Made by a program: the position numbers
Assembly (NCBI RefSeq): GCF_003334305.1
Contig: NZ_QOWS01000002.1
Source: Escherichia coli
GTDB lineage: Bacteria; Pseudomonadota; Gammaproteobacteria; Enterobacterales; Enterobacteriaceae
Length of the DNA: 64,000 nt
Reading direction: 5' to 3' (one strand)
Part shown: piece by piece, positions 27,501-30,500 of the stretch
How the letters are laid out: each line of letters opens with the position of its first letter
Position numbering within the stretch: the stretch's first letter is position 1

Positions 27501-30500
27501 TTGCTCTGAGTAGTGATAACGGGCGCATTCGCGTCAGTGATTTACCTGAACATCTGTTTACCGAGCAGGCGACAGATGATGTCAGCGCCACCCGCCTTTC
27601 CACCAGTCTGTCATTTGCGGAAGTTGAAAAAGAGGCAATTATTAACGCAGCCCAGGTCACAGGCGGTCGCATTCAGGAAATGTCGGCTTTACTTGGGATC
27701 GGCCGCACTACGCTGTGGCGGAAAATGAAGCAACATGGCATTGATGCAGGGCAGTTTAAGCGCCGGGTATGAAAGACAGAAACGATTTCTGATACATCAG
27801 AGTGATCTGTATTTCATTCCGGCGCACGCTAACAATTTTCAGCATCGTTTAAGGGCTTGTCTATCCCGCACTTAAAAGCTGAAGCGATATCCTCCGTTGA
27901 CTTGCTTCTGATCAAAGAGGTTACCCTGCGTGTAATCCGCTTCGAGATAGAATGTGTGCTGTTTGTTATACTGTGCACTGACTCCCACGCCGTTATTCCA
28001 GCCATTACCTTTGAAACTGTACTTCTCCCGGGAGTTGTTCAACAGATATTCGGTATCCCCTGAAAACTCGCGGATAGCGCCAGTCTTCACATAGACATTC
28101 AGCTGGCTGTTGCCTGCGGTGATGTCATACCCCAGTATCATGCTGGCACGCCCCAGCAGCGATTCGTAGTGATTCAGATGTATATTGAGGCCATTACTCG
28201 CCTTCATAGCCATCTCATTCTGGTGGCTGTATGTAAGCTGGGTTTGCGGCTCTATATAGAACCCATAACCAGTAGGGGACAGGTTGAACCTCTGCCCGGC
28301 TTCCAGGGAGATGCTCATTCCATTCGCAGTGCCGTTGGCGTTAACGCCGTTGTTCTGACTGTCCAGTACGTGGAAACTATTTTTCTGGCGCGATGCTTTT
28401 ATAACGAGATCGCTGTAAAAACCGTTTTGTGCCATGTAACTGGCGTACATTCCCATGTAGTCTGAACGTGCGGTACCGTCGCCTCCGCTATAGTCTGGCG
28501 ATGCATGTGTTGAGCCAATATACAGACCGACATACAACGGCATTACATCAGAGAGACGTTTATCCCCACCAAACTGGATACCGCTGTAACCCATGTCAAA
28601 GCCGCTCAGTTTGCCATTGGCAAAGGAGTCCAGGCTTCCCCCATAACTGCGCAACCAGATATTACCGTCTTTACTCTGATTTCGCAGGTCACCCATCCGT
28701 TGCATCAGCGTACGGTTTTCAACATAGTTCAATAAGTAACCGACATTGAGATAATTGCCGCCAGCATCTGCGGTCGTGGTGGGTTTAGGCGTGGGAGCGG
28801 GTTCAGGCGTAGGATCGGGGTTGACTATGGGAGGCTGAGCGGGAGCTGGTGTGGGTTCAGGATTAGGAGTCGGTTCCGGAACTGTCCCGGAAGCGTAAAG
28901 CTCCCAGTTAGTGCCATTTTTACGCACATCGTACAGATATCCCCCCAACTCAACCTGAGAAGACGCGCTGAACGAGGCCGCGCCGTCAGTGGTTTTTACC
29001 ACTGTCAGAACTTCATTTCCCGTTGTGGCCTCGCTGCCCTGGTTGCGGATAGCCAATACGTGATTACCAGCACTACTCCCGCTGATATTCAATAAATCCC
29101 CTTTATTATTAACGCCATTACCCTCGCCAACAACATCAGCACGCATAATAAAGGTACTGTTACCGCTCAGGTTCTCTACGTTTAATGTGGCAAATGTGCC
29201 GGCAGTTGACCCGTGGCTGGCAAAATCGACAGTTGAATGGCTCAGCGCCAGCGTGTCGAGATTAGAATTACTTGTTACGTTCCAGACGCTGTTATTCATT
29301 GCAACGTCCAGTTTTCCGCCATTGACATTATCGCTGAGGGAGGAACCTGTCCAAACCGACCCAGGGTGCATATCCAGATTGATTAGCCCACCTTTGGAAA
29401 GAACGCTACCGTTGATAAGCATACGACCCGAGGCGTTGATGCGGCTGGCGGCATAACCATCGTCATGTTGCGTTGCAATGGCCATCTGGTCGGGTGTACT
29501 CATATCAATGACCAGATCGCTCGTGAGGTCGATCTGGCTGTTGGTCATGGCATAAATTCCCCTGGCTCCTGCCGCGCCGGTGATAGCCAAACTGTCTCCG
29601 GTTATTCTACCGCCGCTGAGCGCCCACAAACCCAGCGCCAGACTGCCATTACGATCAACTGTAATATCGGTATTTTGCATGTTGACAACAGCCGTTGCCG
29701 TCTGGGCCGAGGCACCATAAGAACCGCCGGAAAAGATGCTGTTTCGTTGCGCCGCCGTGCCAGAAAAATTGATTGTCGCGTCTGAACCACTGGTGACGAG
29801 GCCACCGCCCTGCGCGGAAGAAATATGGCTATCTGCACCGATAGTGGTTGTACCACCACGAACTTCGACGCCATTGGCCGCGGCTCCAGTTACATCAACA
29901 GTGAGTGCATTCGCGCTAACCTGGCCAAAGCTCCAGAGGCCGTGTGCATTATCGCCATTGGTTTTAATGGAACTGTTTGTTCCGAGATCGACAACAGAGT
30001 TTTTCTGTACGTTTATCCCCATGGCGCTGTAGCCCTGAACATCGATTGTCAGGTCTGTAGCCGTAAAACGCGCAGCACCATTGGCGTTATTGCCGTTGAG
30101 ACCACCGATATAAACACCTGTACTTCCATCGGTCGTGATTTTACTTCCGCTTCCAAGATCGACACTGGTGCCATAGTCATTGATGGTTAGGCCTATACCG
30201 TTCGAGTTTTCAATGGTGAATTGAGTGGCTGTTAGTGTTGAGCTATGCCCAATAATGATGCCGTCATCGTTACTCTTAATGGTGCTGCCTGTGCCTAAGT
30301 CAGCATGGGTATAGTCACCAATTAAGTTAATGCCGATGGCAGAGGTTTGACCAACAACATCTACTGTGAGTCGGTTAGCTGTCAGGGAGCTGTTTTTGCC
30401 CTGAATAATGATTCCTTTTGCATATCCAGAGGCGTCGTTGACATTGACGGTGACATCATTACCCAGGTTGATATTGCCAGGCGTGTTTCCTGCTGGGGTC

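Follow-up and report, generated by a model that had tools for sequence, protein, structure and literature searches.

In the 64,000-nucleotide stretch of the Escherichia coli contig NZ_QOWS01000002.1 (assembly GCF_003334305.1) that was analysed here, hereafter called the window, the ycgV gene codes for a type Va autotransporter adhesin, YcgV, in which a proline-rich spacer sits exactly between the autochaperone domain at the end of the passenger and the helix predicted to run through the pore of the C-terminal beta-barrel. The spacer has no predicted structure, occurs in E. coli in at least three in-frame length states that differ by steps of exactly its repeat period of six residues, and is plastic in length across the wider family. 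We consider it probable that this segment is an ordinary, length-tolerant extended stalk, the repeats of which slip now and then. As such it is an element of a type already understood, in a gene already known: the principle has been established for pertactin and TibA, and YcgV is known in K-12 as an adhesin-type autotransporter tied to adhesion and biofilm formation (PMC3796261; PMC9289746). The sole new detail is the allele series of one, two and three units, with signs of recurrence.

The spacer comprises 36 residues encoded on the minus strand (PEPTPNPEPTPAPAQPPIVNPDPTPEPAPTPKPTTT; coordinates of all features in table 1) and can be parsed into the segments PEPTPN, PEPTPA, PAQPPIVN, PDPTPE, PAPTPK and PTTT, the hexapeptides of the form PxPTPx being written on imperfect 18-bp repeats. 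Of the 27 prolines of YcgV, 16 lie in the spacer, where proline makes up 44% of the residues vs 1.2% in the remaining protein. A preliminary description of the window had placed a proline-rich linker with short imperfect repeats at 28775-28880, within 3 nt of the interval 28772-28879 found here, and had located it at the passenger/translocator junction of a gene intact at 955 codons. The present analysis agrees on each of these points, since the peptide is as described and both of the quoted nucleotide motifs are present on the plus strand (ggttcaggcgt at 28800-28810 and gggttcagga at 28853-28862), domain prediction puts the spacer between the Pertactin domain at residues 494-615 and the beta-domain at 694-935, and the open reading frame (ORF) has its only stop codon at the end.

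The structural model of YcgV obtained with AlphaFold, which was built on 52 homologues and has a mean predicted local distance difference test (pLDDT) score of 85, depicts the passenger as a continuous series of short strands forming a beta-helix from about residue 56 to residue 616, with pLDDT mostly >90 and the last strand at 611-616. DSSP assigns no secondary structure to residues 617-652, and pLDDT falls below 50 at 619-647, the sole internal stretch of low confidence in the model, which lies between that last strand and the helix of residues 655-684; the barrel then follows at 693-954. Conservation among the 52 homologues follows the same division, with zero columns at least 90% conserved along residues 615-653 and three invariant residues, A657, A659 and L664, in the helical linker.

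Sequence and structural homology converge on the same boundaries. The NCBIfam model TIGR01414 spans residues 513-955 (359 bits vs a cutoff of 16), the pertactin structures 1dab and 2iou (residues about 398-534) align to residues 478-616 of YcgV, and the solved translocators of BrkA, EspP and Hbp align from residues 659-678 to the end of the protein, while the structure of Vag8 aligns over residues 480-954 and leaves part of the proline-rich stretch unaligned. Foldseek matches the YcgV barrel to the beta-domain of BrkA with a template modelling (TM) score of 0.90 and a root-mean-square deviation of 2.5 Å, and also to EspP, Hbp, NalP and the AIDA-I transport unit. Taken together, the positions given by Pfam, NCBIfam, the PDB homologues and AlphaFold thus identify the segment as the spacer between passenger and pore helix. 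YcgV combines the barrel, the preceding alpha-helix and the beta-helical passenger with autochaperone domain that characterise type Va autotransporters, and the YcgV autochaperone cluster is on the list in PMC5767081. Because the N-terminus of the pore helix faces outward in type Va structures (PMC9289746), the spacer is expected to lie on the cell surface. The boundary itself has independent experimental backing from a 2026 display study, in which a truncated anchor named YcgV-T, consisting of residues 622-955 and hence of spacer, helix and barrel, displayed reporters on the surface, as did full-length YcgV, when an exogenous signal peptide was supplied (PMC13101318).

A comparison of linker length among orthologues, proposed as a check in the preliminary description, was carried out with about 80 full-length homologues from Citrobacter, Morganella, Leminorella, Pragia, Pantoea and metagenomes. 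Conserved flanks delimit the spacer on both sides, WELY(A/S)SG before it and (T)TTADAG(G/A)N(Y/F)L after it, and the distance between them can be as short as about 8 or as long as about 121 residues. The intervening sequences use quite differing repeats, among them those of the PEPE/PKPK, PAPTPE and PADEQ types. A proline-rich spacer is found at exactly the same junction in essentially all of the ~80 homologues despite complete turnover of its sequence. Retention of position and proline-rich character, with the sequence itself not retained, is the signature of a spacer.

At the DNA level, Tandem Repeats Finder (TRF) detects just one array within ycgV, at 28781-28819 (period 18, 2.2 copies, 85% matches); a further, more distant copy, the third, comes from a repeat search and occupies 28851-28879. 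The self-similarity of the spacer DNA exceeds that of base shuffles (p about 0.001) and of codon shuffles (p about 0.0125). No ORF on the plus strand covers the spacer and no Rfam family matches there; within it, Pfam returns only weak compositional matches, to Trypan_PARP (E = 0.003) and to the TonB polyproline region (E = 0.9). The commonest proline codon in E. coli is CCG; the spacer prolines are mostly encoded by CCC or CCT, which places runs of GGG on the template strand. The interval 28817-28855 on the plus strand is the sole relaxed G-quadruplex motif (loops of at most 12 nt) in the window, in which no canonical motif (loops of at most 7 nt) was found.

To survey length alleles, a probe of 251 nt across the spacer was compared by BLAST with complete E. 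coli genomes, 3,940 of which gave matches over at least 80% of the probe length. The same-length allele (at least 95% identity to the probe), with two units in the polymorphic array as in the window, accounts for 2,636 genomes (~67%), and in 2,233 genomes, K-12 derivatives included, identity to the window over the probe is at least 99%. The other ~33% (1,256 + 51 genomes) have identities of 80-95%, as expected for an indel of one 18-bp unit, and are read as carrying three units; among the matches listed in this range, every one spans 269 nt. A three-unit allele with additional single-nucleotide polymorphisms (SNPs), that of strain 2012C-4221, has 90.0% identity to the window and hence falls at the boundary between bands, and the 51 records at 80-90% identity are plausibly alleles like it.

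Twelve alleles were then read, namely that of the window and those of 11 other strains, with the frameshifted ycgV of LR-29-1, which carries a K-12-type spacer, left out of the haplotype comparison. All six long alleles have one extra 18-bp unit, in each case inside the TRF array, and fall into three kinds: PDPTPE-PDPTPN-PTPTPK (O157:H7, O114:H49 and others), PDPTPE-PDPTPA-PAPTPK (strain 7/2) and PDPTPE-PAPTPA-PAPTPK (strain N3, a singleton at >=99% identity). The two-unit alleles are PDPTPE-PAPTPK (the window and K-12), PDPTPA-PAPTPK and PDPTPN-PTPTPK, each of which equals a different three-unit kind less one unit, on differing backgrounds of flanking SNPs. A one-unit allele occurs in strain GmM062, which has an intact gene of 949 residues with the spacer end reading PPIVN, PDPTPE, PTTT and a K-12-type flank. 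Artificial probes with one and four units gave many BLAST matches split in two, and only the top-ranked single-piece matches were used; the four-unit probe had no full-length match. The alleles of one, two and three units are all in frame and are annotated as intact at 949, 955 and 961 residues, respectively, and the first hexapeptide pair has constant length in 11 of the 11 E. coli alleles read. Their unit contents, considered together with the flanking SNPs, imply several independent gains or losses of a unit, or else recombination between alleles. With nearly all genomes in one of two length states, and with the alleles mostly tied to their flanking haplotype, the spacer changes length slowly and is close to bi-allelic, not hypervariable. 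The preliminary description had held that repeats of this sort are prone to in-frame length variation between strains; the variation is indeed there, in 18-bp steps, with the caveat on its pace just given.

The mechanism that we propose for these observations begins with a spacer that would be intrinsically unstructured, probably similar to polyproline II (PPII), and located on the cell-surface side, where it would tether the beta-helical passenger, with its pertactin-type autochaperone end, to the alpha-helix plugging the C-terminal barrel. Its role would most likely be mechanical, in that it would keep the adhesive beta-helix off the barrel mouth and the lipopolysaccharide layer and decouple the two folded domains from each other; both the PPII conformation and the function as a stalk are suggested by composition and by the precedents considered below. 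Selective constraint would bear only on the P-x-P-T-P-x alternation, leaving length and x positions free to drift. With imperfect 18-bp units standing in tandem in its coding DNA, the spacer would occasionally gain or lose one whole unit of six residues, the frame being kept, through replication slippage, which we infer to be the mutational mechanism, or through unequal recombination. The outcome would be a slow, low-copy polymorphism resembling a variable number of tandem repeats, with one, two or three units and no on/off switch.

Several points weigh against this interpretation. The self-similarity of the spacer DNA is only modestly above that obtained by synonymous-codon reassignment of its peptide (p about 0.04), and this marginal excess indicates that the repeat, although real, is chiefly a periodicity of the PxPTPx peptide, with some DNA identity on top. 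Slippage must be rare, given just two or three imperfect copies, and what look like recurrent indels could be the product of recombination between alleles. The low pLDDT values fit disorder but do not prove it. Finally, the census combines BLAST identity bands with about 120 rows listed and 11 sequences that were read, and alleles of some other, rare length, or with indels in the first array, may have escaped it.

In its location, its 44% of proline with no predicted fold and its variation in repeat number and length, the YcgV segment shares the attributes of the proline-rich spacers of other autotransporters. A close parallel in domain layout is TibA, the self-associating autotransporter of enterotoxigenic E. 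coli, in which a junction (residues 393-627) is followed by a proline-rich domain of about 50 residues (627-677) and a membrane domain (677-989) with helix and barrel (PMC3835316), in the same order as residues 494-616, 621-656 and 655-955 of YcgV. The likeness is one of layout and homology of the repeats is not expected; TibA differs in that its passenger is heptosylated by TibC, and the variation in unit number between strains reported here concerns YcgV, not TibA. Bordetella pertactin likewise has both a passenger C-terminus of the PF03212 type and proline-rich repeats, R1 and R2, that differ in copy number between alleles, R2 being unresolved in the crystal (PMC8931430) much as the YcgV spacer is unstructured in the model. 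From the point at which the alignment ends, R2 and the YcgV spacer would be equivalent in position, but the pertactin unit is the tripeptide PQP, vs the hexapeptide PxPTPx in YcgV, and pertactin is cleaved to P.69. A resemblance to the rigid (PX)n spacers of TonB and of the OmpA hinge, with alternating prolines presumed to form an extended PPII rod, is compositional and does not reflect homology; moreover, the TonB spacer spans the periplasm, whereas that of YcgV lies on the N-terminal side of the pore helix and would thus be extracellular.

Phase-variable contingency loci with simple sequence repeats also have a tandem DNA repeat that changes copy number within a gene for a surface protein. 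In ycgV, however, the unit is of 18 bp, in frame, present in one to three imperfect copies and slow to change, with no on/off switching. A phase-variation switch was rejected since all three length alleles are in frame, in genes annotated as intact, and variation at the high frequency of contingency loci is contradicted by 2,233 genomes at least 99% identical, three length states and their linkage to haplotype.

Alternative explanations of the spacer were weighed as well, and of these the antigenic, processing and ligand-binding ones are each less supported than the stalk. According to the first, the spacer would be a target of antigenic variation or diversifying selection, a surface-exposed and immunodominant repeat with its unit number and x residues driven by host immunity or phage, as has been proposed for pertactin R1 and R2. 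We regard this as unlikely, even if amino acid changes do cluster at the x positions (E/N/A/K and D/A/T), with P and T retained, genome-wide scans of E. coli for positive selection flag ycgV (PMC9110714), and pertactin alleles vary in the number of their proline-rich repeats (PMC8931430). As published, the selection signal is not assigned to the spacer, and misalignment of indels could inflate it; the presence of only three length states in about 3,940 genomes, with alleles largely tracking flanking haplotypes, argues against strong diversifying selection. Furthermore, among the 5,426 complete genomes of E. coli, 4,119 contain ycgV and 1,307 give no match, so that it is absent or a remnant in ~24% of them (the remnant, consisting of the first 118 bp only, was seen in one complete genome), and in some other genomes it is broken by the insertion sequences IS1 or IS3 or frameshifted, a pattern suggesting that the gene is dispensable and under weak selection overall. 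Roux et al. 2005 reportedly found ycgV to be poorly expressed in K-12 under laboratory conditions, which also counts against this reading.

That the spacer is instead a processing site seems unlikely too, and slightly harder to sustain. Many autotransporters are cleaved in or near their linker (PMC9289746), unstructured proline-rich stretches are open to proteases, and pertactin-family homologues bear in their source annotation the precursor name 'P.93'. Conversely, no cleavage motif was identified, no data came to light on how YcgV is processed, proline-rich PX sequences are generally poor substrates for proteases, and the hypervariable length and sequence of the spacer within the family speak against a specific recognition site. 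A processing role and a spacer role are mutually compatible. As for the proposal in the preliminary description that the repeats mark the boundary of the secreted passenger, the boundary stands, while the passenger may be cleaved off or may stay tethered.

Adaptive tuning of the unit number, by which the projection of the YcgV beta-helix would be set against the thickness of the O-antigen or capsule of each strain, appears to us improbable. If it were true, recurrent gains and losses would reflect selection to match the surface coat, and ycgV would constitute a natural 'molecular ruler' series for the shielding of adhesins, with roughly 19 Å per unit if the spacer adopts PPII.

There is little probability that the spacer acts as a specific ligand-binding module, recognised by host domains of the SH3, WW or EVH1 type or by matrix proteins, with a direct role in adhesion. 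The proline-rich region of TibA is said to have been linked to adhesion by Cote & Mourez 2011. The YcgV spacer has the same location as that domain (PMC3835316), and YcgV when expressed promotes adhesion and biofilm formation (PMC3796261). Yet the spacers of orthologues are unconserved, being of PE/PK or PADEQ type or reduced to 8 residues, which is hard to square with a conserved motif; indeed, sequence turnover argues against any specific site or motif. Lastly, a chance low-complexity stretch with neither function nor true repeat structure is hardly credible, for although the DNA repeat is short and imperfect and the synonymous-codon control marginal, the spacer keeps its exact junction in essentially all of the ~80 full-length homologues, its alleles differ by exactly one 18-bp unit and its self-similarity stands well above base shuffles.

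The gene lies between dhaR and ychF, in the standard order dhaKLM-dhaR-ycgV-ychF-pth, and matches the annotated ycgV genes of strains A7 and DH5a with identities of 100% and 99.7%, respectively. The non-coding interval of 768 bp between the start of ycgV and ychF (30740-31507) is unusually long. Near the N-terminus of YcgV, reading of the sequence reveals a hydrophobic stretch, FGAIGLNAIIFSPLLIAA, followed by AAD, with AAD/GSQ kept in homologues. A putative signal peptide is given a probability of only 0.47 by SignalP 6.0 in the display study, where surface display needed an exogenous one (PMC13101318). The N-terminus (residues 1-47, encoded at 30599-30739) has a long charged leader ahead of the hydrophobic stretch and very low AlphaFold pLDDT values of 26-40. 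The window contains a second gene for type V secretion, ychO, annotated as an inverse autotransporter invasin, at ~48573-49967 by transfer of coordinates from strain A7.

Table 1. Position in the window of the ycgV gene and of the protein segments on either side of, and within, the proline-rich spacer
Feature	Residues	Coordinates	Strand	Evidence
ycgV coding sequence		27872..30739	-	ORF list; 955 codons plus stop, sole stop terminal, intact
Pertactin-type C-terminal passenger (autochaperone) domain	494-615	28895..29260	-	Pfam PF03212, E = 1.4e-37
Proline-rich spacer	621-656	28772..28879	-	Translation, low pLDDT, no conserved columns
First hexapeptide pair (PEPTPN, PEPTPA)	621-632	28844..28879	-	Repeat copy, allele table
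Polymorphic 18-bp array, two units here (PDPTPE, PAPTPK)	641-652	28784..28819	-	TRF, allele alignments
Alpha-helical linker, predicted through barrel pore	655-684	28688..28777	-	AlphaFold helices 655-661 and 663-684
Beta-barrel translocator	693-955	27875..28663	-	Pfam PF03797 at 694-935, E = 7.6e-38

Elsewhere in the window, the long direct repeat (LDR) of the ldr/rdl type I toxin-antitoxin system is present at 43872-44707 in two identical copies 536 bp apart, with Ldr ORFs starting at 43955 and 44491 and Rfam matches to rdlD at 44111-44176 and 44647-44712. Strain A7, with its identical ycgV, has three Ldr genes annotated at this locus, and K-12 also has three, ldrA, ldrB and ldrC; the LDR array thus appears to vary in copy number. 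A single tRNA-Tyr (GTA) gene at 61020-61104 is followed by one RtT element at 60842-60973; K-12 has tyrT and tyrV in tandem at this locus, from which one tRNA-Tyr copy may have been lost by recombination. An Rfam match to the C0299 small RNA (112 bits) lies at 5415-5493.

The boundary between passenger and translocator of YcgV is now fixed, which helps the design of anchors for surface display, the published YcgV-T beginning inside the spacer. The unit alleles explain why YcgV proteins have lengths of 949, 955 and 961 residues. An indel of 18 bp can disturb alignments of ycgV in typing or in scans for positive selection, and misalignment of this kind might contribute to the published selection signal of the gene. 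The series of one, two and three units is a neat case of a surface-protein spacer that turns over its repeats slowly and in frame, and is otherwise of little import.

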